A stretch of DNA of 62,481 bases, counting the filler, from Anaerolineae bacterium (GTDB lineage Bacteria; Chloroflexota; Anaerolineae; Epilineales; Epilineaceae), in NCBI GenBank assembly GCA_029262755.1. It is 6 parts of 6 records of this genome, joined end to end, with 100 filler letters (N's around TTAATTAATTAA, not from the genome) between each part and the next. Parts side by side here need not be neighbours in the genome. Positions count along the whole stretch, not along the records: positions 28,940 to 33,572 come from JAJCYU010000086.1; 5 more parts are not named here. One strand, written 5' to 3'. Position 1 is the stretch's first letter, and each line of letters starts with the position of its first letter. A program made the translations under genes and the position numbers. A model generated the notes under the pieces. It was not told the DNA's origin, searched no databases, and saw only the letters and a program-made list of their open reading frames with translations. Below are positions 28,840 through 59,439 of the stretch, one piece after another.

Positions 28840-28939
28840 NNNNNNNNNNNNNNNNNNNNNNNNNNNNNNNNNNNNNNNNNNNNTTAATTAATTAANNNNN
28901 NNNNNNNNNNNNNNNNNNNNNNNNNNNNNNNNNNNNNNN
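28840..28939. other. Artificial contig spacer
   Basis: N44-TTAATTAATTAA-N44; the genes on both sides are truncated. Confidence 0.99.
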
Positions 28940-29253
28940 AGATCTGGTTTCTCTGCCGTCAGTACGACGCGGCGCAGGCCCTGGAGATGGGGCTCGTCAA
29001 CACCGTGGTGCCGCTGGACGAGCTGGAGGCCACAACCGTGGGTTGGTGCCGCGAGATGCTGGCGCTCTCCCCGCTCGCCCTGCGCTTCATCAAGATGGGC
29101 ATGAACGCGGAGCTGGACGGCCAAGCGGGCCTGCAGCAGTTCGCGGGCGACGCCACGTTGCTCTACTACATGACCGAAGAGGGTACGGAGGGCAAGAAGG
29201 CCTTCTTGGAGAAGCGCAAGCCCGACTTCGACCGGTTCCCACGCTTTCCGTAG
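28940..29253 (+). CDS. menB: 1,4-dihydroxy-2-naphthoyl-CoA synthase, C-terminal fragment
   Basis: [24 protein letters not shown]...[34 protein letters not shown]. Confidence 0.95.
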
Positions 29254-29402
29254 CCATACAGGGCGTTCGCTACGGAGCGGTCGTTAGTTGCAGTCCGCTG
29301 ACGCACGGTCGCAGTTCTCTGATCTCGCATCTCGCAGACCAAGGTTCGCAGCACCACCGCTCTGTCCGCGATACGACGATTCCGTTCGCGAATCCACACG
29401 CT

Positions 29403-29504
29403 CGACCGCCGTAGTTTCGTCCCGACCGCCACAGTCCGTCACGACCGAGCTGTTCCGTCCCGACCGCCAGAGTCCGTCACGACCGGATGGTTCCGTCCCG
29501 ACCG
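29403..29504 (+). repeat. Tandem array with 19-bp period, core TYCGTCMCGACCG (5 copies plus one partial)
   Basis: Cores start at 29416, 29435, 29454, 29473 and 29492, separated by variable 6-nt linkers. The alternating C/A gives a 38-bp superperiod. Confidence 0.9.
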
Positions 29505-29583
29505 TTGCCCTGGCGTCCATACCGACAGATTGCTTTGCTGAACAAGCAACCACCGTTCGTCACCGTCGCGCCAAGGACGTCCC

Positions 29584-30552
29584 ATGTTGCGAGCATGGTG
29601 GCTGGCCAGCCGCCCCAAAACCCTATCGGCATCCGCGGCGCCCGTCGCGGTGGGCGCGGCCCTCGCGGCCGCGGCTCAGGCCAACCTCGGTATCGAGGTC
29701 TTCGCGGGTGACGTCGCGCTGGCCGCGCTCCTCGGCGCGCTGCTGATCCAGATCGGCACGAACTTCGCCAACGATGTCCTCGACTTTCGCAAGGGCGCGG
29801 ACACGGCGGAGCGTCTCGGCCCGGTTCGTGTCACGCAAGCGGGCTTGCTCACGCCACGGGCTGTGACGATCGGCACGGCCGTCGCGTTTGCGCTGGCCTC
29901 CGTGGTCGGCATCTACATCGTGTTTCGCGCGGGCTGGCCAGGCGGAGCACCGATTCTGATCCTCGGTGTTGTTGCGATTCTCTCCGGCATCGCCTATACG
30001 GCCGGCCCCTACCCGTTGGCCTATGTGGGGTTAGGCGACTTGTTCGTGTTGATCTTCTTCGGCGTCGCGGCCGTGGCCGGCACGTACTACGCCCAAGTAG
30101 AAGCCCAGACCGTGGCCTTGGCCAGCACCATCGGTCTGAGCTGGATGCCACGGGCGATCGCACTCGGCATTTCCGTGGGCGCGTTGTCCATGGCCATCCT
30201 CAACGTCAACAACCTACGTGACCGCGTGGGCGACGCCGCCGTCGGCAAGCGCACGATGGCCGTCCGCCTAGGTGCGGACCGGACCCGCGTGTACTACGAA
30301 GCGCTGATCTTCCTGGCCTTCGCGATTCCCGTCGGCCTCGTCGCCTTCGGCTGGCTCGGGCCTGCCACGCTCATCGTGCTCGGCGCCGTACCGCTGGCCC
30401 TCGAACCGGCCCGCCACGTACGCACCGGACGGGAAGGCCGCGACCTGAACCCGGTTCTGGCCGCAACGGCCCGTCTTCAGATGGCCCACGCGGCATTGCT
30501 GGCCGTCGGGCTCCTGATCGACGCCTTCGCGATGTCGCGGATCGGTGGCTGA
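29584..30552 (+). CDS. menA: 1,4-dihydroxy-2-naphthoate polyprenyltransferase
   Basis: [46 protein letters not shown] and NNLRD...D...[10 protein letters not shown]. Confidence 0.96.
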
Positions 30553-31723
30553 GCCCGACCGCGTGCGCGGTCCCGAGCACTGGCCTCCGCGCGTGCGCGT
30601 CACGGCCTTCGACCTACCCTTCGCCCGCCCCTTCACCACCGCCTCCGGTGTGTACACCCGGCGGCGAGGCTGGCTTGTGCGTATCGGCGATGCATCCTCG
30701 CCCCCGGTCGGCTACGGGGAGGCGGCGCCGCTACCGGGCCACGGAGGCGAACCCCTTGCGGACGTGCGCCCTGCCATCGCCGCCCTGGCACGGATTCTCG
30801 CCGCCGCACCGCCTCCTGGCGATGACTCGCGCGAAGCACTCACATCCCTCGCGGCCGAGCTGAGCGCCGCCGTCCCCCACGCACCGTGTGCCGTCGCGGC
30901 CGTCGTCACCGCGCTCGCCGATCGCGCGGCGCGCCGGAGCGGGCTGCCCCTCGCGCGTTGGCTGGACGCATCGGCGACGGCCGGTGTCGACGTGAACGCG
31001 ACGATCGGCGCGGTGCCGCCGGCGGAGGCCGCTGAACGTGCCCGCGCCGCTGTCGCGGCGGGCTTCCGCACCCTCAAGCTCAAGATGGGCGACGGACCCG
31101 TAGACATCGCGCGAGCCCGCGCCGTTCGCGCTGCCGTGGGCCCCACGGTGCGCCTACGCGGTGACGCGAACGGCGGGTGGAGCGAGGACAGCGCGCGCTG
31201 CAAGCTCGCCGCCCTTGCGCCGCTCGACCTCGCCTTCGTCGAGCAACCGACCGCCGCCTCCGACGTCGCGGCGCTCGCACGCCTGCATGCATGGTCGCCG
31301 GTCCCGATCGCAGCGGACGAAGCTCTCCTGCCGCCGCTCGGCCCGGGCGCGGAAGCGCTGCTCCAGACGCAGGCCGCGAGCGTGTGGGTCCTGAAGCCGG
31401 CCCTGCTCGGCGGGCCGTTCGTCGCGATGGACCTGGCCCAACGTGCGGCGGCGGCCGGCATCGAGGTCGTGATCACGACGGCGCTCGACGCAGCGGTCGG
31501 ACGGCGCATGGCGATGCATGTCGCGTCCGCGATTACAGGTCGCCGCCACGCGGACGGACTGGCCACGGCCGGGTTCCTGGCCGAAGATGTGGGTCCGGAC
31601 ACGCCGATAGAAGCGGGGCGGGTGCACGTCTTCGACCTTGGCCTTGCCGACGATGCCGATGGCTGCTTCCACGGCCTCGGCTCCGTACCGGCCGTGGCGA
31701 TCGATCGGTGGGAGGCACCATGA
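30545..31723 (+). CDS. menC: o-succinylbenzoate synthase (enolase superfamily)
   Basis: GEAAPLPG, KLKMG, RGDANGGW, FVEQP, IAADEA and VLKP; located in the men cluster. Confidence 0.9.
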   Translation: MAEPDRVRGPEHWPPRVRVTAFDLPFARPFTTASGVYTRRRGWLVRIGDASSPPVGYGEAAPLPGHGGEPLADVRPAIAALARILAAAPPPGDDSREALTSLAAELSAAVPHAPCAVAAVVTALADRAARRSGLPLARWLDASATAGVDVNATIGAVPPAEAAERARAAVAAGFRTLKLKMGDGPVDIARARAVRAAVGPTVRLRGDANGGWSEDSARCKLAALAPLDLAFVEQPTAASDVAALARLHAWSPVPIAADEALLPPLGPGAEALLQTQAASVWVLKPALLGGPFVAMDLAQRAAAAGIEVVITTALDAAVGRRMAMHVASAITGRRHADGLATAGFLAEDVGPDTPIEAGRVHVFDLGLADDADGCFHGLGSVPAVAIDRWEAP

Positions 31724-32271
31724 GCAAGCGCGCGCCGCAGCGGGACGTCGACATCCTGGATGCCACGCTCGGACCGGAGCAGCTGCTCGTCCTCTACGAC
31801 GGTACCTGAGGCGTGTGCTCCGACTCGGCTCGTCGGATGGCACGTTGGGATCGACGTGCACGGATCTGTTGGCTTCCATCGAAGAAGCCGGGCCTTGCCG
31901 AGGCGGCCGGCCTGAGCCGCGCACAGCTCGACGCCGCCTTGTGGGCCGTCACACCGGCCGGCCGGCAGCTTCGCGGCGCGGGCGGTGTCCTGGCCGCATT
32001 CGATGCCGCCGCCCTCGGCGATCGCCGGATCGCGCGGACGGTCTACGCCATTCCGGGCCTCCGCAGCGCCTTCGACGCCGGCTATGCGCTCTTCGCGCGC
32101 CACCGCGGGCGCTTCGGCGGAACGGCCGCATGCAGCCTTCGATCGCCGGCCCCCTTGGACGATTCATCCGTTGCCGAGCTCGCACGGCGGCGGGCTGTGG
32201 CGCGCGGAGAGCTCCACGTAGGCGAAGGAATCAGCGACGCGGATTCCGCCGATCGAGCGGACCTCGCGTGA
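31720..32271 (+). CDS. DCC1-like (DUF393) thiol-disulfide oxidoreductase with in-frame TGA at codon 30; probable selenoprotein of 183 aa
   Basis: GGAGG SD and ATG overlapping the menC stop (ATGA). Reads LLVLYDGT[TGA 31807-31809]GVCSDSARRMARWDRRARI...GRQLRGAGGV...GYALFARHRGRFG, matching the family pattern YDGxCxxC...D...Y...ARxR. Confidence 0.82.
31815..31843 (+). promoter_or_regulatory. Candidate bacterial SECIS hairpin
   Basis: GTGC-TCCGAC-[TCGGCTC]-GTCGGA-TG-GCAC begins 6 nt after the UGA. The G-containing apical loop starts 16 nt downstream of the UGA. Confidence 0.55.
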
Positions 32272-32308
32272 TGCGCGCGCGGATCGAGGCGGCGCGTGGA
32301 GGCCCCCC

Positions 32309-33572
32309 GTGAGCGCGCACGAGCACGGTGCGCATGACCGGGCGGACCGACCGTCCGATTGGATCGCGTTGCCGCTACCGGCCCGCGCAGTACAAAACCC
32401 CGAAGGCATCGCGCTCGTCACCCACGACACGACGTGGACGTGGGCAGCGCTCTCAGCAAAGGCGCACGCGCTCGCTGCTCGATTCGCGGCGCTCGGCGCC
32501 GCTCCGGAATCGGCCGTCGCGGCGCTGTTGCCCAACGGCGCGGCCTTCGTTGCGCTGGTCCACGCCTGCGCTGCGCGCAACGCGGTCTTCGTCCCGCTCA
32601 ACACGCGCCTGACGCCGGCCGAGCTGAACGGCCCGCTGACGGACACGGCCCCGGGTATCCTCGTCGCCGATCGACAATACGCGGACGTCGTGGACCTGCT
32701 ATCGCTGCCGGCCGCGTGTCACGTCCTTTGGTCCGACGGCGCTGGGGTCGTGGAGCCGGCATCCCCTGCCGAACCGCGCGTGCCTCCCGCCAATTCCGCT
32801 ACGCTGCCTACCGGCCGCGAGTCGGTGCCGTCCGCCTCCGCACAGGTGATCATCCACACATCGGGCTCCACCGGCCGCCCCAAGGGAGCGATCCTGACGT
32901 GGGGCAACCAGGCGTGGAGCGCGGCCGGCTCCGCCATACGCCTTGGCACCCAGCCCGACGACCGATGGCTGGCCGTCATGCCGCTGTTTCACGTCGGCGG
33001 GCTGGCGATCCTACTACGCGCGGCTTGGTCGGGGGCCGCCGTCGTCGTCCATGACGGTTTCGACGCCCAGGCCGTGTGGCGCTCGCTGCAGCAGGACCGG
33101 ATCCGTCTCGTATCGCTCGTCCCCACGATGCTGGAGCGGTTGCTGGACGTCGCGGACGGGGCTCCGCCGCCGGATACCTTGCGGGCCGTGCTTCTCGGCG
33201 GCGGCCCCATGGCGATGCCGCTGCTTGCCAGGGCCGTCGCGGCCGGATGGCCGATCCATCCCACCTACGGCCTGACCGAGGCCTGCAGTCAGGTCGCTAC
33301 CGCCGCCCCTGGATGGCGGCCGTCGGACGGCCTTGCGGTCCCTCCCCTGCCGTTCACAGAGATCCGGATCGTCGACGAGCGCGGTGTGCCCGTGCCGACG
33401 GGGAGCGAGGGCGTTGTCGAGGTACGTGGCCCCACGGTATTCGCCGGCTACGTGGCCGGCGAAAGCGGGACGTCGATCAAAGGCCGTGATGAACGGCAGC
33501 CATGGCTGCACACGGGCGACCACGGTCAACTCGACGTGCGCGGCCGTCTATCCGTGATCGGGCGTCGCACCG
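32309..33572 (+). CDS. menE: o-succinylbenzoate-CoA ligase, C-terminally truncated
   Basis: AMP-binding motif HTSGSTGRPKG, MPLFHVGGL, SLVPTML, LLGGG, TYGLTEACSQ and WLHTGD.G. Confidence 0.93.
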
Positions 33573-33672
33573 NNNNNNNNNNNNNNNNNNNNNNNNNNNN
33601 NNNNNNNNNNNNNNNNTTAATTAATTAANNNNNNNNNNNNNNNNNNNNNNNNNNNNNNNNNNNNNNNNNNNN
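33573..33672. other. Artificial contig spacer
   Basis: N-run containing TTAATTAATTAA. Confidence 0.99.
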
Positions 33673-44403: not shown

Positions 44404-44503
44404 NNNNNNNNNNNNNNNNNNNNNNNNNNNNNNNNNNNNNNNNNNNNTTAATTAATTAANNNNNNNNNNNNNNNNNNNNNNNNNNNNNNNNNNNNNNNNN
44501 NNN
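44404..44503. other. Artificial contig spacer
   Basis: N-run containing TTAATTAATTAA. Confidence 0.99.
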
Positions 44504-44580
44504 ACCTCTCCGAAGCCGACGCCGCTGCCGTCGCCGCGCACCTCGCGGACATGACACCGGAGGGGGAGGCCGGTGTGTGA
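44504..44580 (+). CDS. C-terminus of the gene upstream of terL (possibly terminase small subunit)
   Basis: ...LSEADAAAVAAHLADMTPEGEAGV*; the stop overlaps the terL start (GTGA). Identity inferred from position only. Confidence 0.4.
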
Positions 44581-46109
44581 TCTACACCGAAGCCCAGATA
44601 GCGCTTGCAGCCGAGCGGGCCGGGCTCTCGGGTGTCGATCCGTCCGTCATCCGCGAGCGGCTTGTGCAGCGGGCACGGGAGCCGTTCACCAAGTGGCGAC
44701 CGCTGCCGACCGGGGAACAGGGCAAGTTCGTCCGTCACGCCATCGCAGAGGCCGCTACGGGCGTCATCGTCCTGCGTGGGGGCAACCGATCGGGCAAGAC
44801 CGACAGCGGGGCGTACGTCACCGCACACCGGGCGCGGGTGACGCTGGACACGATCGCACGGGCACGCAAGGCCGAGGGCAAGCCCACGGTCATCTGGTGC
44901 GTGGGGACGACCTACGAGCACTGCGGCAACACGATGTGGAAAGACAAGCTGCGGCACCTGATCCCGGACGCGGTGATCGACGGGGTGACGTGGCTGAACC
45001 GGCAGGCGGGGCACCCCAAGATCGTGCGGCTAACGAGCGGTATCGAGCTTGTGTTCAAATCGGCGGACCAGGGCCGCGAATCCATGCAGGCGGCGGACCT
45101 GTTCGGCATCTGGATCGACGAACAGATCGACCCCAACCTGTTCAGCGAGCTCGCCATGCGGTGCATCGACCACGACTCACCGATCTGGTGGACGTTCACG
45201 CCGCTGAACCCGGACCCGAATCTCGAGCAGGCCATCTCCGATCCGCCGGACGGGTGGGCCTTCTATCAGATCGACATGGAGGACAACCGGGTCAGCCGGG
45301 GCGGGTATCTGCCGGACGAGAAGGTCGATCTGGCGCTTGCACAACTCAAGGCACAGAACCCGGACGAGTTCGAGACCCGCAAGAGCGGTGCCCTCATGGC
45401 GTCCGAGGGGCTGATTTTCAAGAACTGGAACCGGCGTATCCACGTGCGCCCCGCGTCGGAGATCATGGATGCGGTCATGTCCGACCGCATCGTGTTCCGG
45501 GGCTGCGGGGTGGACTTTGGCCGCACCGTGCCGTCCGCTGTGATATGGGGGGCACGCGATGACGCGGGGCGATGGTACATCTACGCGGAGCACTACCGGG
45601 CAGAGTGGACGATCGAGCGGCACCACGAAGCCATCGTCACGATCAACGAGCAATGGGCACTGCAGCCCGAGTGGTACGCCTGCGATCCCGGCGACGGATC
45701 AAAGACGGCGCTTGGTGCGGAGGTCACGACAAGCGGACGGGCCTACCTGCGTCGGCAGGGGTGCAGCGTCATCAACGCCGACAAACGCTGGTCGGAGGGC
45801 GTGCGGACCCTGCAATCGCTTCTCGCCCCCGAGATGGTCGCCGGGTCGGATGGCCCGGTCGCGGGCGAGCCGATGCTGTACGTCTCCGAGGAATGCGAAA
45901 ACCTGTGCCGGGAGATCGGCCTGTACCGGCGGCTCGCGGGCACTGCGATCAGTGACCGGGACGGGCCTATCAAGAAAGACGATCACGCGGTGGATGCGTG
46001 GCGATACCTTGTGCGGACCTATGAATCCCGGTACGCGGGGAAGACTGCGGGCGTATCCGCAGCCGGGCCGGCGCGAATGGCAGGGAACCCGCTGGCGATG
46101 CTTGGGTGA
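44577..46109 (+). CDS. terL: Phage terminase large subunit
   Basis: Walker A GGNRSGKT, Walker B IWIDE, coupling motif TFTP, and nuclease motifs GVDFG and KDDHAVDAWRY. Confidence 0.93.
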   Translation: MIYTEAQIALAAERAGLSGVDPSVIRERLVQRAREPFTKWRPLPTGEQGKFVRHAIAEAATGVIVLRGGNRSGKTDSGAYVTAHRARVTLDTIARARKAEGKPTVIWCVGTTYEHCGNTMWKDKLRHLIPDAVIDGVTWLNRQAGHPKIVRLTSGIELVFKSADQGRESMQAADLFGIWIDEQIDPNLFSELAMRCIDHDSPIWWTFTPLNPDPNLEQAISDPPDGWAFYQIDMEDNRVSRGGYLPDEKVDLALAQLKAQNPDEFETRKSGALMASEGLIFKNWNRRIHVRPASEIMDAVMSDRIVFRGCGVDFGRTVPSAVIWGARDDAGRWYIYAEHYRAEWTIERHHEAIVTINEQWALQPEWYACDPGDGSKTALGAEVTTSGRAYLRRQGCSVINADKRWSEGVRTLQSLLAPEMVAGSDGPVAGEPMLYVSEECENLCREIGLYRRLAGTAISDRDGPIKKDDHAVDAWRYLVRTYESRYAGKTAGVSAAGPARMAGNPLAMLG

Positions 46110-46145
46110 TGAGAGCACCACGAACCACGACGAAATGAGCCAACC

Positions 46146-47561
46146 ATGACCGAATCCATCGCCAAAGCCCAGGTACGCCCCGTCTACCCGACCGACCTCG
46201 TTGCCAGTATCAGCACCGCACTGAGTCGCGTGCTCATGCGCGGCGACCGGGCGTGGCGGCAGAACCGCCAGCTCCAAGTGATGATGCGGCAAGACCCGGA
46301 TATCCAGCACGCAATCGAGGTGCGGGAGCAGGCGGGCGTGTCGATGAAATGGCGGATCAAGCCCGTTGACGAGGACGATCTGGCCCACAAAGCCAAGTGC
46401 ATGGCGACCGAGAAGGCCATCCGTGCGATCCCCGAGTTTGTGCAGATGCGGCGTCGGACCCAGCAGTGCATCTGGTACGGGGCAACGGCGACGGCGCTGA
46501 ACTGGGCGATGCTGCCGAGACCGATCGAAGCAACGGCGGAAAACGAGAACATCGGCGACGACGGCAAGGCCGAGAGCGAGACGGCATCAATCACCATCGC
46601 ACCCACGCGGGCGGACCCGGTGCCCCCGGACGGCATCCGGTGGACCGCAGACGGGCGGCTGGTAATCCTGTCCAACCCCCGCAGCGATCGCTTCAATGGA
46701 TACGAGCGGGTGTACACGGACGGCGGATCGGGCGTGGTCGTCCCCGATGACGAGCGGTCGGCGTGGTTGGTGGCGGTTTGGAACAAAGACGCCCCGAACG
46801 CGGCGGACCCGCACACGGCGGACCGTTCGTACGCGGGCCACGGGCTGCGGTCGATGCTGTGGGATGGGTGGGTGCGGAAGCAACAATTGCTCCAGGTCGG
46901 CGACAGCTACGCGGAGCGCCTGAGCCGGGGCACGATCATGGTGGGCCACGACGGCACATCACAGAGCGAGGCGGCGGCAAAGGCGGTTGTGGACGCACTG
47001 GGGCAGGCCCACGCGGTCACGATCAACACGAACGCTGCCGAGGCGGTCGGCGGACTCGACAAGATGATCCAGGTATTCGAGGCCAGCGGCACCGGCAACC
47101 AGATCTTCCGCGACATGGCGAGGGACGCGGGCGAGCAGTTGAAGCTCTGTATCCTCGGACAGACGCTCACCACCGACACCGCACCCACCGGGCTGGGTTC
47201 GGGCGTTGCCGAGGCCCACCAGGACACGTTCAGCAAGCAACTCGAGTATGACACCGCCGTCGTTGACGAGGCGATGACACGCGACCTTGTTGGGCCGATG
47301 TGGCGTGCGAACTTCCCCGATGACCCCCGAATCCCCGAGTTCCTGTCGCAGAACCGCGAAGACGAGGAAGACACCGACAAGCGGATCGAGACCGCTGAGC
47401 GCCTGCACGCGATGGGCGTGCCGCTGGCGTTGAAGGATCTGTATGCGGAGAGCGGGTTCCGCGAGCCGCAGGGCGATGAGGCCACGGTGGGGGGCGGCGG
47501 CGATCCGATGGGGGGCGTGGGTGATTTGCTGGGCTCGTTGCAGGATGAGGGGGTTGTGTGA
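46146..47561 (+). CDS. Phage portal protein, DUF935 / Mu gp29-like
   Basis: M.QDPDI..AI..R, GHGLRS and ILGQTLTT...GLGSGVAEAH; follows terL. Confidence 0.85.
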   Translation: MTESIAKAQVRPVYPTDLVASISTALSRVLMRGDRAWRQNRQLQVMMRQDPDIQHAIEVREQAGVSMKWRIKPVDEDDLAHKAKCMATEKAIRAIPEFVQMRRRTQQCIWYGATATALNWAMLPRPIEATAENENIGDDGKAESETASITIAPTRADPVPPDGIRWTADGRLVILSNPRSDRFNGYERVYTDGGSGVVVPDDERSAWLVAVWNKDAPNAADPHTADRSYAGHGLRSMLWDGWVRKQQLLQVGDSYAERLSRGTIMVGHDGTSQSEAAAKAVVDALGQAHAVTINTNAAEAVGGLDKMIQVFEASGTGNQIFRDMARDAGEQLKLCILGQTLTTDTAPTGLGSGVAEAHQDTFSKQLEYDTAVVDEAMTRDLVGPMWRANFPDDPRIPEFLSQNREDEEDTDKRIETAERLHAMGVPLALKDLYAESGFREPQGDEATVGGGGDPMGGVGDLLGSLQDEGVV

Positions 47562-48535
47562 CGGCACCCCGCCCCACACCCCGCAGAATCAACGCCGTAG
47601 CCGACACGCTCGCGTCACGGTTCGTCGTCAAGGCCATGCCGCTCTACCGGCAGGCCATCCGCGACTATCTCGACGGCGACACCGGCTCTGAGGCGTGGAA
47701 TGGGCTTGCGGACCTGTGGGGGCGGCAACTGCTGGCGTCGATGCTGCTGGGCCGGGCCGCGACCGATCGAGACCTGATCCGGCAGCGGTTGATCGAGGCC
47801 CCCACCCAGCCCCGCGTCGAATCGCTCGGGTTCGCCCAGTTCGATGACGACGACATCGCCAACCGGGCGATCAAGCAAACCGCCATCGACATCATCAATC
47901 GGTTCACGGCGGAAATCCCCGACCTCGCCACGATCGGGCCGCAGATGGCGGCGCAGGCCCAACGGCAGGCCCACAGCCTCATGATGGCGACCCACGACGA
48001 CGCACCACGGCTCATCGGCAAGATCATCGAACGCATCCCCGAAGCGGCGAGGATCGGACCGGACACCCTGCCCGATCCCGCGTCGATCGTCCGCAGGCTG
48101 CTCGACAACGACGACGGCGTGAAGCTGCTGAGCCGCACGCTCGACACCGAGGCCCGCACTTCGATGATGGGCGGGTTCAATCACGCGGGCCGCGCCGAAA
48201 TCGTGCGGCACCAGAACGTGATGCCGGTGACGATCCTGAGCGAGATTCAGGACCGCAGGACACGCGGAAACCCGAACGGACGGTATCCCGATGCCCCCCC
48301 ACATTACCAGATGGACGGGTTCGCAGCGGCGACCGATGACCCGATCTGGGAACGGATCACACCCCCCAACGGCTACAACTGCCGGGGCTCGATCCGGGGT
48401 GTTTCGACCGCAAAAGCCCTACAAAACAAGTGGTTACGCGACGACGGCACCGTTGACCGCGAAGCCATGCGGCGCAAGTTCGCACGCCAATGGCGGCTGA
48501 TCGAATCGGGCAAGTACCCCGACGAAGGCTTCTAG
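47558..48535 (+). CDS. Phage minor head morphogenesis protein (Mu gpF / SPP1 gp7 family)
   Basis: DRRTR...H..MDG...DDPIW..ITPPNGYNCR and C-terminal PDEGF. Confidence 0.88.
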   Translation: MTAPRPTPRRINAVADTLASRFVVKAMPLYRQAIRDYLDGDTGSEAWNGLADLWGRQLLASMLLGRAATDRDLIRQRLIEAPTQPRVESLGFAQFDDDDIANRAIKQTAIDIINRFTAEIPDLATIGPQMAAQAQRQAHSLMMATHDDAPRLIGKIIERIPEAARIGPDTLPDPASIVRRLLDNDDGVKLLSRTLDTEARTSMMGGFNHAGRAEIVRHQNVMPVTILSEIQDRRTRGNPNGRYPDAPPHYQMDGFAAATDDPIWERITPPNGYNCRGSIRGVSTAKALQNKWLRDDGTVDREAMRRKFARQWRLIESGKYPDEGF

Positions 48536-48590
48536 GGGGGCATCAAACCCCATCTTGTATCACCATTGCGGCCCGTGTTGTATGGGCTGA

Positions 48591-49811
48591 ATGGATGCCG
48601 TACTCGCACCAGAACCTACCGCCCCGACCGTGACCGGCTCACACGCCGTTGACATCGACGGGGATCGTTGCGTCATCCGCAACGTCGAATTGTTCAGCGA
48701 GAAGGCCAAAGACACCGCGCTGGGCAAGGTCGATCGGGCCATGCTCGACCGGATCACCGCCCACACGAACCGCATGGCCGCGAACGGGCGGCGCACGCAG
48801 ATCGTGTTGCGGCACGCATCGAAAGACGAGCCCGCCGATCAGCAGTCCTACGGCACCATCCGCAACCTGTGGGTGGGCGAGGCCAACGGCACCGTGTACA
48901 TCTACGGCGACCTGCACATGCGGCAGCATGAGCTGTACACGCTGGAGCGATACCCCCGTCGGTCAGCCGAGATTTACGGCATGGCGGACGGGCAGGTCGT
49001 CAGCCTCGCCGATGGCGATTGGGACGACCTGTGGCTGGGCAACCTGGCGTTGCTCGGGCGGGAGACCCCCGGCGCGGACATCCCCGATCTTTCAGTCTCA
49101 CTCAATGGCGGAACGGATCACCCGGCGGTGTTCCTGAGCGAAGTCCCCGCCGTCACATTCGGAACCACCCAGGAGCCCGACATGGATATCGACAAGAAGG
49201 CCGTGCAGAAGTTCATCGACGACATGGACGAGAAGGATCGCAAGGCGTTTCTCGCCGGATTCTCGGAAGACGAGAAGCCCGCTGAGGACGAGAAGAAGGA
49301 AAAGAAGCCCGACGAATCCAAGAGCAGCGCGGAGTCCGCACCGGCGGCTACGGCGGCTGCCGAGTCGGTTGATTTCGCGTCCGACCCGCGATTCGTCGCC
49401 ATGCAGGCGCAGATCGGCCAGTTGAAGCAGAGCGGGCGTGAGAACAGCACACGCGATGCCCTGCGATCGCTGGCCGACAAGGGCGTCGTGTTCAGCATGG
49501 ACGATGAACTCGCACGGTGTGCGGCCATCATCGACGACGAGGCCCGCGCCGCTGAGTTCTCCCGCATGGAGAAGAACTACGCCCGCACGCAGACCCCGCG
49601 ATCGCTCATGCACGCAAGCCAGGGCGCTGCCCAGTTCGCCGGTGCCGCGCAGCCCGCGACGGACCAGGCGTTGACGAGCGTGGAGCTCTCGCAGATCAGC
49701 ACCAAGGCGGCTGAGTTCGCATCGAACGACGGCCTGTCCACCGAGGAAGCGACCCACAAGGCCGCCGAATCGCTCGGTCTCTCTGACAAGTTGAAGGCGT
49801 ACGCGGGCTGA
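48591..49811 (+). CDS. Probable prohead protease / scaffold protein
   Basis: Lies between gpF and the capsid genes. N-domain has LRH, YPRRSAEI and LALLGRETP; the C-terminal half is charged and helical. Confidence 0.7.
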   Translation: MDAVLAPEPTAPTVTGSHAVDIDGDRCVIRNVELFSEKAKDTALGKVDRAMLDRITAHTNRMAANGRRTQIVLRHASKDEPADQQSYGTIRNLWVGEANGTVYIYGDLHMRQHELYTLERYPRRSAEIYGMADGQVVSLADGDWDDLWLGNLALLGRETPGADIPDLSVSLNGGTDHPAVFLSEVPAVTFGTTQEPDMDIDKKAVQKFIDDMDEKDRKAFLAGFSEDEKPAEDEKKEKKPDESKSSAESAPAATAAAESVDFASDPRFVAMQAQIGQLKQSGRENSTRDALRSLADKGVVFSMDDELARCAAIIDDEARAAEFSRMEKNYARTQTPRSLMHASQGAAQFAGAAQPATDQALTSVELSQISTKAAEFASNDGLSTEEATHKAAESLGLSDKLKAYAG

Positions 49812-49833
49812 GCCCGGAACAAAGGAGCCCACA

Positions 49834-50265
49834 ATGAACAGTTCAGCCACAGCACTCACCTACGCCGCAAGCGCGGCGGTCAACCCCAAGCGAATCGTCA
49901 AGGTCTCGGGGAACCGGACCGTTGCCCAGTGCAGCGCGGACACGGACGTGATCCTCGGTGTGTCCGGTCGTGACGAGAGCGCATACAACGAGACCACCCA
50001 CGCCGCAGCGGCTGGCGACCCCTGCGTCGTCTACGTCCCCGACGGTCGTGAAGTCATCATCACAGCGGGCGGCACCGTTTCGGCTGGCGGGTACGTCACC
50101 GCCGACTCGGACGGCAAAGCGATCGATGCCACCACCGACGACGTGACCGACTCGGAGACGGGCACCACCGCGTACGCGATCGGCCCCGTCATCCAGGGCG
50201 GCGCTTCCGGTGAAGACCTCGTGGTCATCAACAACGTCATCTCTGTCCGCAAGGTGTCCGCATAA
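49834..50265 (+). CDS. Capsid cement/decoration protein (DUF2190-like)
   Basis: Small Ala/Gly/Val-rich protein (AGGTVSAGGYVTADSDGKA) directly before the capsid gene. Confidence 0.75.
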   Translation: MNSSATALTYAASAAVNPKRIVKVSGNRTVAQCSADTDVILGVSGRDESAYNETTHAAAAGDPCVVYVPDGREVIITAGGTVSAGGYVTADSDGKAIDATTDDVTDSETGTTAYAIGPVIQGGASGEDLVVINNVISVRKVSA

Positions 50266-50299
50266 CCCGGGGTAACGCCCCACGAAAGGAGGCCCACAC

Positions 50300-51415
50300 A
50301 TGGCCTTTGTGAACCCCGGCGCTGGAAACGTTCTGCTTCCCGGCCCCACCACGAACGTCGGCGCGACCATCGCGCTGCAGACCGCATTTTCCAAGAACCC
50401 CAGCCGGTTCTCGTATCTGAACGCCGTGCGACGCATCCCGACCGCAAAGACGGTCGGCGTGTACGCGGAGACGAACGCCGACGACGTTGCCCGCATCGTT
50501 TCGGGGCAGGAAAAGCCCAACTGGCGTGACGGCGCGGCCCGGCCCGAGCCTGAGAACATCGACCACGAAATCCGCACGTTCCAGACGCAGCGGAACTCGG
50601 AAGTTGCCCAGCTCGGCAACCTGACGATCAGCAACGATCAGGTCGGCGTGGTCGCATCGCATTCGAGCGGCAAGGCCCATCTCGCCATGCTCAAGAAGAT
50701 GCTGGCGTTTGAGACGCTGGTAACCGATCCCGCGATCCTGACCCAGCACTACACCGCGACGGCACTGGGTGGCGGCAAGGTGGGTTCGGCGACATCGGCG
50801 AACAGCTACATCCAGAAGATGTTCAACGGGGCCAAGAAGGCCATTCAGCTCAACACGAACGGCGCGGTCGGCACCAGCGACATCATCGCCGTGATGGGCG
50901 TTGAGACCGCATCGACAATCGCAGAGTCGCCCGAAACAAAGGATTGGCTCCAGTCCAACCCGTGGGCGGTCAATGCGTTCCAGGGTGACGACATCTTTGA
51001 GACCTACGGGCTCCCGCCCAAGCTCCACGGCGTCCGCATCCTGGTTGCGAACGAATCGGTTGTGACCTCGGAGAAGGGTGCGGGAACCACCACCCGTCGC
51101 AGCCTGTTCGAAGGGCTGGGCACGGTCAGCGCCCAGACGGTCGGCACCCCGATCGTGTTCCTCACCCGCGAGGGTGGGGCACGCGGCAAGCTCCAGCCGT
51201 TCGCCGAACCGCTCGACGCGGGCGACCTCAACGGCATGTCCACGCCGGTCAACACGATCAGCAACGACACGGTTCTCGAGATCTTCCATGAAGACATGAC
51301 CTCTGAAACCGAGGTCGACAACTGGAACCGCGTTACCAAGATGGCCGTCACCGACAACTACGTCCACAAGATCGGCAGCGTCCGTGGCGCTGTCCTCGTC
51401 CGTGACGCGGTGTAA
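50300..51415 (+). CDS. Probable major capsid protein
   Basis: 371 aa, strong AAAGGAGG SD, position in the head module, YGLPPKLHGVRILV segment, followed by a terminator. Confidence 0.8.
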   Translation: MAFVNPGAGNVLLPGPTTNVGATIALQTAFSKNPSRFSYLNAVRRIPTAKTVGVYAETNADDVARIVSGQEKPNWRDGAARPEPENIDHEIRTFQTQRNSEVAQLGNLTISNDQVGVVASHSSGKAHLAMLKKMLAFETLVTDPAILTQHYTATALGGGKVGSATSANSYIQKMFNGAKKAIQLNTNGAVGTSDIIAVMGVETASTIAESPETKDWLQSNPWAVNAFQGDDIFETYGLPPKLHGVRILVANESVVTSEKGAGTTTRRSLFEGLGTVSAQTVGTPIVFLTREGGARGKLQPFAEPLDAGDLNGMSTPVNTISNDTVLEIFHEDMTSETEVDNWNRVTKMAVTDNYVHKIGSVRGAVLVRDAV

Positions 51416-51430
51416 CCAAACTCAGCGGCA

Positions 51431-51466
51431 CCGCCCGCGCCCGGGAAACCGGGCGTGCGGCGTTTT
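51431..51466 (+). terminator. Intrinsic terminator after the capsid gene
   Basis: Stem GCGCCCGG-GAAA-CCGGGCGT followed by TTTT. Confidence 0.7.
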
Positions 51467-51540
51467 CACCAGCGAACAGGAGGGCGGATCATGCCAGATT
51501 CATACGGACCGGGAGCCGCATCCAAACTCCGCAGGGCGAG

Positions 51541-51640
51541 NNNNNNNNNNNNNNNNNNNNNNNNNNNNNNNNNNNNNNNNNNNNTTAATTAATTAANNNN
51601 NNNNNNNNNNNNNNNNNNNNNNNNNNNNNNNNNNNNNNNN
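51541..51640. other. Artificial contig spacer
   Basis: N-run containing TTAATTAATTAA. Confidence 0.99.
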
Positions 51641-57765: not shown

Positions 57766-58109
57766 ACATGACCCTCCTAGGCGAGGCGGCCATACCCCTG
57801 AGTTTGGAACGAGACCGCCGAACGTTGGCCAAGCGTAGCAACGAGCGTCGTCCGGTCCCCAATAATTGTTGCGCTTGCCATGAAGCACCCTAGCCAAACG
57901 GCACGCCGCGTGGTGGAGCAACCTCTGCCTAGGCTCCGTAACGGCGCGCGGCCCGTCGCGGACCATGGTCGTGCCTAGCGGACCCAAAGCAATGCCGAAC
58001 CAACCGCCTTCGCATGGCGTGCCATTACTCGGCGTGCCGCCGCAAAATCCGTACGGTGCGTATGGCGATGAGGCGCTCATGGCCTTTGTGCACCCCTGAG
58101 GAGTTCACT

Positions 58110-59339
58110 GTGGATGGCAAAGACAACCCGGCCGAAGGATCGGACTCTCCACCGGTGAGGGAGCCACAGATCACCGTCTATGGCGCGTACTGGTGCCCGG
58201 ACTGTCACCGCAGCAAACAGTTTCTTGGCGAGTTTCAGATCCCCTATCACTGGGTAGACATCGAGCAAGACCCCGAAGCCGAAGCCAAAGTAATCGAGAT
58301 CAACGACGGCAAGCGCTCGATCCCGACGATCGTGTTCGGGGACGGCAGCACGCTCACCGAGCCGAGCAACGCGGAGCTGGCCGCCAAGTTGGGTTTGAAG
58401 ACCCGCGCAGAACGCCACCACTACGATCTGATCATCGTGGGCGGTGGGCCAGCCGGCCTGAGCGCGGCGCTCTATACGGCGCGCGAGGGCATCGACACCC
58501 TCGTCATCGAGCGCGCCGCGATCGGCGGTCAGGCGGCGGCGACCCAGCACCTGGACAACGTGCCCGGCTTCCCGGACGGGCTCTCGGGACACGAGTTGGC
58601 CGACAGGCTACAACGACAGGTCGAGCGCTTCGAGGTCGAGCTCCTGCGGGCACAGGACGTCCACCACATCGGGAGCCACGACAACTACCTCACCGTCGAG
58701 ACCACCGACGGCAGCACGTACAGCGCACGGGCATTGCTGCTTGCGACGGGCAGCCGCTATCGGCGGCTCGGGGTACCGGGCGAGAACGACTATCTCGGCG
58801 CGGGCGTCCACTACTGCGCGACCTGCGACGGACCATTTTACAAGGGCCGAGACGTGGTTGTGATCGGAGGCGGGAACAGCGCCACGGAGGAGGGCTTGTT
58901 CCTCACCCGCTTCGCGGACTCCGTCACGCTGCTCGTGCGCGGCGAGGCGCTGAAAGCCACCCAGATCCTGGTCGACAATCTGGCTTCCAGCCCCGAGGTC
59001 GACTTACGATTCGGGACGGAGGTCACGCGCTTCAGCGGGGCGGACAGCAAGCTGAGCACGGTTCATGTGCGTGATCGGGCAACGGGCCAGGAATCGAGCA
59101 TCGACGTGCCCGGCGCGTTCGTCTTCATCGGCCTGGATCCCAACACGACCTTTCTGCGCGATAGCGCCGTCCGGCTCGACGAGACAGGCTTTGTGATCAC
59201 AGGACACGATCTGGTGCACGACGGTGATCGCCCCCACGGGTTCACGGACCGCGATCCGGCGACCTTGGAGACGAGCGTCCCCGGCATCTTCGCGGCCGGT
59301 GACCTGCGGGCCGGCAGCACGAAGCAGGTCGCGACGGCC
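58110..59339 (+). CDS. Glutaredoxin/NrdH-like domain fused to thioredoxin reductase, truncated at the contig end
   Basis: YGAYWCPDC...GKRSIPT...LTEPSN, then GGGPAGLSAA, HYCATCDG, IGGGNSA and GIFAAGD. Confidence 0.92.
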
Positions 59340-59439
59340 NNNNNNNNNNNNNNNNNNNNNNNNNNNNNNNNNNNNNNNNNNNNTTAATTAATTAANNNNN
59401 NNNNNNNNNNNNNNNNNNNNNNNNNNNNNNNNNNNNNNN
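59340..59439. other. Artificial contig spacer
   Basis: N-run containing TTAATTAATTAA. Confidence 0.99.

Follow-up and report, generated by a model that had tools for sequence, protein, structure and literature searches.

Is the in-frame TGA of a DCC1-like gene in an Anaerolineae bacterium a stop, a lesion or a codon for selenocysteine (Sec)? The question is raised by a 62,481-nucleotide stretch of DNA from GenBank assembly GCA_029262755.1, here called the window, which is made up of six contigs joined by spacers of the form N44-TTAATTAATTAA-N44 and along whose whole length all positions are counted. One of its genes, which we call dcc, belongs to the DCC1-like (DUF393) family and carries a TGA on the first cysteine of the DxxCxxC redox motif. 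The original prediction, made from the sequence alone, was that dcc encodes a hidden selenoprotein. Having compared the locus with its relatives, we consider it very probable that codon 30 of dcc is decoded as Sec, yielding one DCC1-like selenoprotein of 183 residues. The following features of the locus are needed for the argument.

28940..33572 (no strand): contig piece with the dcc gene, 4633 bp, matching the longest contig recorded for the truncated protein P0002
31710-31715 (+ strand): Shine-Dalgarno-like GGGAGG, 4 nt ahead of ATG 31720
31720..32271 (+ strand): dcc, 183 codons and a stop, predicted to encode a DCC1-like thiol/selenol-disulfide oxidoreductase with codon 30 read as Sec
31807-31809 (+ strand): in-frame TGA (U30), opening the U-G-V-C redox motif, where the 15 full-length homologues have Cys
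31810-31846 (+ strand): candidate Sec insertion sequence (SECIS) hairpin, containing ATG 31837, the start chosen by gene callers
31816-31818 (+ strand): TGC (C33), second redox residue of the UxxC motif

The gene had been described as starting at an ATG behind a Shine-Dalgarno sequence, reading through the TGA into 153 further codons free of lesions, and being split by the open reading frame (ORF) track, and all of this is confirmed in the sequence. The frame opens with M-S-K, reaches LLVLYDGT-TGA-GVCSD and then runs through 153 stop-free codons to the TGA at 32269-32271; the TGA at 31807-31809 is thus the sole internal stop of the 183-codon frame and falls on the first Cys of DxxCxxC. The ORF list divides this frame and gives 31813..32271 as an ORF of its own. 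The assignment to DCC1/DUF393 also holds, as the read-through protein (P0001, 183 aa, with U entered as C) matches PF04134 (DCC1-like) over residues 24-134 and profile positions 1-112 of 113, scoring 53.2 bits where the cut-off is 27.8 (E 8.7e-14). Its motif is D27-G-T-U30-G-V-C33, in which U replaces the first Cys. Near the C-terminus there is a third cysteine, C138 (32131-32133), within a G-x-x-A-C-x-L/I-R sequence that most subfamily members have kept; its role could be that of a resolving Cys or of a ligand to a metal.

One rival explanation is that dcc is a dead gene or an assembly error, in which a TGC or TGT cysteine codon has mutated, or been misread, to TGA. This would take a change of only one base, the dcc contig is short and of low coverage (word depth of about 6.7), and the organism's own Sec machinery is unseen. 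However, a metagenome scan recovered one orthologue locus, L001 (1702 bp, 67% identity), in which the same TGA stands in the sequence LLVIYDGT-TGA-GVCSD. Between the window and L001, the ratio of non-synonymous to synonymous divergence (dN/dS, by the Nei-Gojobori method) is 0.27 upstream of the TGA (29 codons, dS 0.76, with an in-frame indel of two codons) and 0.30 downstream of it (127 codons, dS 0.95). The TGA is therefore not private to this strain: it has been kept at a dS of about 0.8-0.9, with low dN/dS on both sides and with no other lesion in the 183 codons. A single internal stop that lies on the motif Cys and is kept in L001 is more than would be expected by chance. Furthermore, a second assembly, in the form of a Logan contig from run X1 (3048 nt, covering window positions 29776-32823), is identical across the TGA; this contig and the window probably come from one sample. 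The TGA also recurs at exactly this position in 25 genomes of relatives, described below. L001 thus largely refutes the reading as a pseudogene or error, which we regard as highly improbable, and the original preference for Sec recoding over random decay is supported by the same evidence. In addition, run X2, from another, marine study, contains a 378-nt contig over 31591-31943 that differs at six positions (approximately 98% identity), from which it follows that close relatives of the window strain occur in a second habitat; the contig spans the TGA site but is silent on the TGA itself. There were no RNA sequencing runs among the listed runs that carry this stretch of the window.

A different objection concerns the start of the protein. 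Gene callers have given the window's product (P0002) and 21 other cluster representatives precisely the form that begins at ATG 31837, and on this reading the real product would be a 144-residue protein without the redox motif, with the 29 upstream codons acting as a leader peptide or having no coding function. The extent of this annotation became clear when 1.84 billion cluster representatives were searched in full with HMMER, which gave 902 matches at E <= 1e-3: by hand count, 22 of the best 150 clusters (including the window's own protein) have their start, within the first five residues, at profile positions 37-43, just past the motif. We fetched 29 of these best 150 homologues, of which 15 were full-length and 14 N-truncated. 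In all 15 full-length proteins there is a DGxCxxC whose first Cys aligns with U30; the 14 truncated proteins begin 8-12 residues past the motif. Judged by where they begin, the truncated clusters look as if gene callers had cut them at the motif. Homologues with either codon at the motif position have thus been found, with TGA in L001 and in Actinomycetota and Cys in the full-length proteins. A short product is at odds with several features of the gene: the 29 upstream codons are under purifying selection, with an indel that preserves the frame; they hold the conserved beta-1 strand and DG motif of the family; the Shine-Dalgarno sequence and the ATGA coupling to the upstream gene (see below) are found at 31720 and not at 31837; and ATG 31837 lies inside the hairpin. 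Moreover, a DCC1-like protein without CxxC would miss the defining site of its family. We consider the 144-residue product very improbable, and prefer the 183-residue protein with Sec at position 30. The closest clusters come from metagenome assemblies only; P0004 is encoded on an ENA contig of 100 kb, and P0156 and P0163 on JGI contigs of 17-45 kb. A word-indexed protein search found three relatives, all without the N-terminus, and a pattern search of genome contigs with the clade alignment gave 94 pattern matches, none of which was a relative.

To place the gene among sequenced genomes, we sampled groups chosen through matches to CarB (80 loci with 45-63% identity). A clade profile (A2) was searched against samples of the Actinomycetota phylum (351 genomes), Gemmatimonadota (201), Myxococcota (241), three other phyla (35, 99 and 121) and two Actinomycetota classes (251 and 104), and a Desulfobacterota phylum sample of 301 genomes was searched with PF04134. 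These searches read through stops. As a stop flag is often only the terminal stop of a gene, Sec forms were counted solely from matches that we translated ourselves. In the Actinomycetota phylum sample, 39 of 351 genomes matched the clade profile. The first Actinomycetota class was searched in all of its 104 genomes, and 33 of them matched at E <= 1e-8, with 27 of the 35 matches flagged for TGA. Five flagged unpublished genomes were left out of the translated count; the 22 flagged published genomes all proved to have TGA at the motif, as UxxC in 8 cases and as UxxU, with both cysteines replaced, in 14. Cysteine (CxxC) forms occur in six genomes of the same class. From the second class (251 genomes sampled), 12 genomes matched and 3 contained UxxC. 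In total, therefore, 25 Actinomycetota genomes from two classes have TGA at the same motif position (11 UxxC and 14 UxxU). The UxxU loci, in the class of G521, are L109, L110, L119, L138, L142 and L145-L153; in these the two TGA codons are 9 nt apart and are followed by one long hairpin. Twelve other TGA-flagged matches were rejected as Sec forms when translation showed them to be Cys forms, including all seven that were checked in the Gemmatimonadota sample. No Sec forms were found in the Desulfobacterota sample (where the family is present in 23 of 301 genomes), in the Myxococcota sample or in the three other phyla.

In a tree of 121 rows (one of them false), all 27 verified Sec rows share one clade with 24 Cys rows; this clade comprises 65 rows and has a value of 97 in the SH-like approximate likelihood ratio test (SH-aLRT). 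The window gene groups with L001 and the truncated protein P0004, and then with P0007, which is a Cys form. The starred branches force at least three to four switches between Sec and Cys. The false row, L102_FDAEULTC (branch length 3.89), was an artefact of the regular expression and was disregarded.

The Sec machinery was also sought in the Actinomycetota genomes with Sec forms. Scores over cut-off were obtained for selA in six of six such genomes tested, for selB in five of five, and for selD in five of five and then four of five further genomes (eight of nine distinct genomes, as one genome was in both sets); all 11 genomes tested for tRNA-Sec have it with a score of at least 60 bits, and it generally lies next to selA. 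A selA match is present in 20 of the 22 Sec-form genomes of the first class. As selA is common across that class as a whole (91 of 104 genomes at E <= 1e-30), its presence is consistent with decoding as Sec, but does not discriminate. The selD matches in G521, G611, G386, G605, G462, G874, G893, G914 and G414 were each flagged with one inside TGA, which could mean that SelD itself contains Sec, or could be no more than the terminal stop of the gene.

A hairpin follows the UGA in these relatives, and there it is clearly specific to the Sec forms. In the first Actinomycetota class it begins approximately 15 nt after the first UGA, and its helix (columns 16-25 x 39-47, numbered from that UGA) is paired in 169 of 176 cells in 22 Sec forms (96%) as against 24 of 40 cells in five Cys forms (60%). 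The mean folding energy of a 38-nt window is -20.9 kcal/mol for the Sec forms and -7.6 kcal/mol for the Cys forms. In a covariation test on the Actinomycetota sequences, 97.6% of cells were paired and 10 two-sided changes were seen, compared with 2.9 in shuffled alignments; neither the pairing nor the covariation was reached in any of 500 shuffles, and controls slid along the sequence paired at 27-53%. A second helix of 5 bp (alignment A4, columns 52-56 x 62-66) is likewise kept only by the Sec forms, where all 110 cells pair, as against 12 of 25 cells in the Cys forms. It lies approximately 51-66 nt after the first UGA, over the RRVTAV codons, and shows compensatory changes. This second helix may be part of a bipartite SECIS.

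The window gene has a candidate hairpin downstream of its UGA (31810-31846), starting 1 nt past that codon and comprising 13 bp, in a 7-bp lower stem and a 6-bp upper stem separated by a 2 x 2 internal loop, with the apical loop UCGGCUC (31825-31831). In L001 the codons of the upper stem are identical to those of the window, the loop differs, and a 7-bp stem occurs at the same place. Several observations weigh against the Sec reading. The window hairpin (-19.0 kcal/mol, z -1.91) is only marginally better than shuffled sequence, with a fold of equal or greater stability in 8 of 200 shuffles, and the L001 hairpin has a z of 0.00. Over 60 nt, eight Sec forms (mean z -0.08) were no more stable than shuffled sequence, and did not differ from 28 Cys forms (mean z 0.00; Mann-Whitney p 0.30). 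No relevant Rfam family was found at either gathering or E-value thresholds. The comparison of DNA at the level of the clade covers two members only, the window and L001, and a close relative of the clade is absent from the 1,349 genomes searched with the clade profile and the 301 searched with PF04134; the best genome match to the profile had 89.5 bits (41% identity), compared with 191 bits for the metagenome protein P0007. Two of the Sec-form Actinomycetota genomes, both small, fragmented assemblies, lack a selA match: G893 (1.3 Mb), which has selD, and G963 (2.4 Mb), which lacks both. In the window itself, none of selA, selB, selD or tRNA-Sec was found in the 62 kb, which are part of the genome; because only these 62 kb of the organism's DNA were searched, its Sec competence is inferred. 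Finally, dcc lies on a contig of 4.6 kb whose placement in the bin is unverified.

With the organism's Sec machinery unobserved and the energy signal of its hairpin marginal, it could be argued that the UGA is decoded, but with a residue other than Sec, either by a near-cognate or suppressor tRNA (for Trp, Cys or Gly) or because TGA has been reassigned. Reassignment is contradicted by the window, in which 15 of the 25 genes with Pfam support end in TGA as their ordinary stop, among them menA, menC and dcc itself, the first two being the upstream neighbours of dcc; the genetic code is thus not reassigned here. In addition, the TGA occupies the position of a redox Cys, which is the classic site of exchange between Sec and Cys, and the relatives with the same TGA possess the full Sec machinery and a hairpin that is specific to the Sec forms. 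Non-Sec read-through is, in our judgement, another highly improbable account, and decoding of the UGA as Sec remains the reading that we favour.

How might the selenoprotein be made and what would it do? Translation would start at ATG 31720 and, as the overlap of start and stop suggests, be coupled to the end of the upstream menC-like gene through the ATGA. At the UGA (31807), the hairpin at 31810-31846 would be expected, by the established bacterial mechanism, to recruit SelB carrying Sec-tRNA(Sec), such that Sec is inserted instead of termination taking place. The U30-G-V-C33 centre of the product would then stand where helix 1 begins, in a beta-alpha-beta unit that may be thioredoxin-like, and this centre would presumably cycle between selenol/thiol and selenenylsulfide forms, with thiol/selenol-disulfide exchange as the likely function. 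An AlphaFold2 model, built from an alignment of 31 sequences (predicted local distance difference test, pLDDT, 90.2; predicted template modelling score, pTM, 0.83), places the motif likewise: it has a strand at residues 22-26, U30 followed by a helix at 31-43, and a strand at 49-53, with the motif at 30-33. Nearly all of the top rows in structure searches were thioredoxin-fold domains, at weak scores (best Foldseek E 0.12; best VIA match Z 4.7, with a root-mean-square deviation of 2.6 over 73 residues), and a sequence search of the PDB found no solved relative.

The original prediction had also not recognised DUF393 among the classic bacterial selenoprotein families, and our searches agree with this. 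A 2026 review lists 119 prokaryotic selenoprotein families and subfamilies, citing recent family reports (PMC13188914, Table 1), and this table contains no entry for PF04134, DCC or DUF393. NCBIfam, whose models include selenoprotein-specific ones, had no family at E <= 0.01 for P0001, for two of the Actinomycetota Sec forms or for P0007 and P0012. Similarly, DCC, DUF393, PF04134 and YuxK are absent from the text supplements of BSepDB and deep-Sep, in copies that are possibly incomplete, and a full-text search of the literature found no report joining DUF393 or 'DCC family' with selenoprotein, and none containing COG3011 or PF04134; the single paper that combines DCC, thiol-disulfide oxidoreductase and selenocysteine appears unrelated. 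On the strength of these sequence comparisons and searches, we judge with high confidence that dcc truly belongs to the DCC1-like family as a Sec-type form, one that has been missed by published catalogues and by annotation, and that it would represent the known UxxC kind of redox selenoprotein and not a new mechanism.

Comparison with known systems helps to define what is distinctive about it. Like the Cys-type DCC1-like/DUF393 proteins (PF04134), the window protein has the domain from end to end, the motif at the place of DGxCxxC, the same size and a predicted beta-alpha-beta core; unlike them, its first motif Cys is replaced by a TGA codon with a candidate hairpin behind it, and in one Actinomycetota class both Cys codons have become TGA. 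The UxxC selenoproteins of thioredoxin fold (Sec-containing thioredoxin, glutaredoxin, DsbA-like, thiol:disulfide interchange protein and redoxin family; PMC13188914, Table 1) similarly have Sec in place of the attacking N-terminal Cys of CxxC at the start of helix 1, coexist with Cys homologues and carry a hairpin directly 3' of the UGA, to which the candidate hairpin of dcc would correspond. However, DCC is a different Pfam family and its matches to thioredoxin-fold structures are weak (Foldseek E >= 0.12, VIA Z <= 4.7). The Prx-like thiol:disulfide oxidoreductase of the same table resembles the Actinomycetota DCC proteins in having both UxxC and UxxU within one family, but it belongs to the unrelated PF00578, and the window gene is UxxC only.

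The neighbourhood of dcc offers a further question, that of its substrate. The genes that share its contig piece are as follows.

28987..29253 (+ strand): menB-like enoyl-CoA hydratase/isomerase gene, of which the contig end leaves only the 3' part (Pfam ECH_1, E 3.2e-15, profile 167-249 of 251)
29584..30552 (+ strand): menA-like UbiA prenyltransferase gene (Pfam UbiA, E 2.5e-30)
30545..31723 (+ strand): menC-like gene, o-succinylbenzoate synthase type, enolase superfamily (Pfam MR_MLE_C, E 1.5e-35)
32309..33572 (+ strand): menE-like AMP-binding gene, o-succinylbenzoate-CoA ligase type, running off the contig end (Pfam AMP-binding, E 2.9e-70)

The order on the + strand is therefore ECH (menB-like), UbiA (menA-like), MR_MLE (menC-like), dcc and AMP-binding (menE-like), where the men names rest on Pfam families and gene order, not on orthology tests. 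By these two measures, dcc lies in a classical menaquinone operon. The TGA stop of the menC-like gene overlaps the start of dcc as ATGA, and the same overlap is found in L001, which has an MR_MLE (menC-like) gene directly upstream. An open frame after the dcc stop of L001, read to the end of the locus, was taken as the putative start of a menE-like gene. When the menC-like protein was compared with five genomes, the best identity was only 41%.

Because the two known orthologues both have dcc flanked by menC and menE (the latter putative in L001), the partner or substrate of its redox chemistry may be tied to menaquinone, a suggestion from gene context that we put forward tentatively and hold at rather less than even. 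VKOR and DsbB are quinone-coupled thiol oxidoreductase systems, and dcc resembles these, and a fusion of HTTM with a DCC1-like domain, in being a CxxC-type redox protein with a genetic tie to vitamin K or menaquinone chemistry; it differs from them in that no membrane domain is fused to the window dcc and its menaquinone tie comes from gene context. The HTTM and DCC1-like fusion is described in a 2026 preprint (bioRxiv 10.64898/2026.08.19.745780). Among the relatives, HTTM genes, which are similar to the vitamin K-dependent carboxylase, adjoin two Actinomycetota Sec-type DCC genes (L110:110-1489, + strand; L113:2-1303, - strand), and a UbiA prenyltransferase gene (L119:1960-2916) adjoins one. 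The neighbours of Cys-form DCC genes include DoxX_3 at L093 and L094 and UbiD at L094. Most of the approximately 70 DCC loci examined have unrelated, heterogeneous neighbours, which counts against a menaquinone link; as quinone-related neighbourhoods are few, no link with quinones is claimed for the family as a whole. A bolder proposal, which we think unlikely, is that Sec-type DCC is a selenoenzyme devoted to the chemistry of menaquinone (vitamin K2), for example a soluble quinone or quinone-epoxide/thiol oxidoreductase that would serve the men pathway and, in relatives, membrane proteins of the HTTM (vitamin-K-carboxylase-like) type. If this were true, part of bacterial vitamin K metabolism would be selenium-dependent and the DCC1/DUF393 family would have its first defined substrate.

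The rest of the window contains a few other features of interest. The spacers between its contigs are located as follows.

28840-28939, 33573-33672, 44404-44503, 51541-51640 and 59340-59439 (no strand): inter-contig spacers, each of N runs plus spacer sequence

Genes on separate pieces of the window have no demonstrated physical linkage or common organism. On the piece at 44504-51540, large ORFs without a Pfam match accompany a phage portal gene of the Mu type (46146-47561; Pfam Portal_Mu, E 5e-36); this piece probably represents a Mu-like prophage or a fragment of a phage. At 58014-59339, a gene that runs off the contig end encodes a glutaredoxin (residues 53-110) fused to a pyridine nucleotide-disulfide oxidoreductase (Pyr_redox_2, residues 137-442). 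The G+C content of the window is 67%, at which a scan for further TGA-interrupted frames was too noisy.

In summary, recognition of a Sec-type DCC1-like family would have consequences for how these proteins are catalogued and studied. As gene callers cut the family at the UGA, databases hold headless proteins that lack the active site, namely the window's own and those of 21 clusters among the best 150; and as the family is missing from the selenoprotein catalogues examined, selenoproteome counts are too low for Actinomycetota and for this uncultured lineage. The menC-dcc-menE arrangement, which is new here, provides a lead on the function of DCC1/DUF393 proteins. Furthermore, a single bacterial class contains the same small enzyme in natural Cys, UxxC and UxxU variants, which is a convenient system for asking what a CxxC centre gains from selenium, and the UxxU forms can be used to ask how one hairpin serves two UGA codons that are 9 nt apart.

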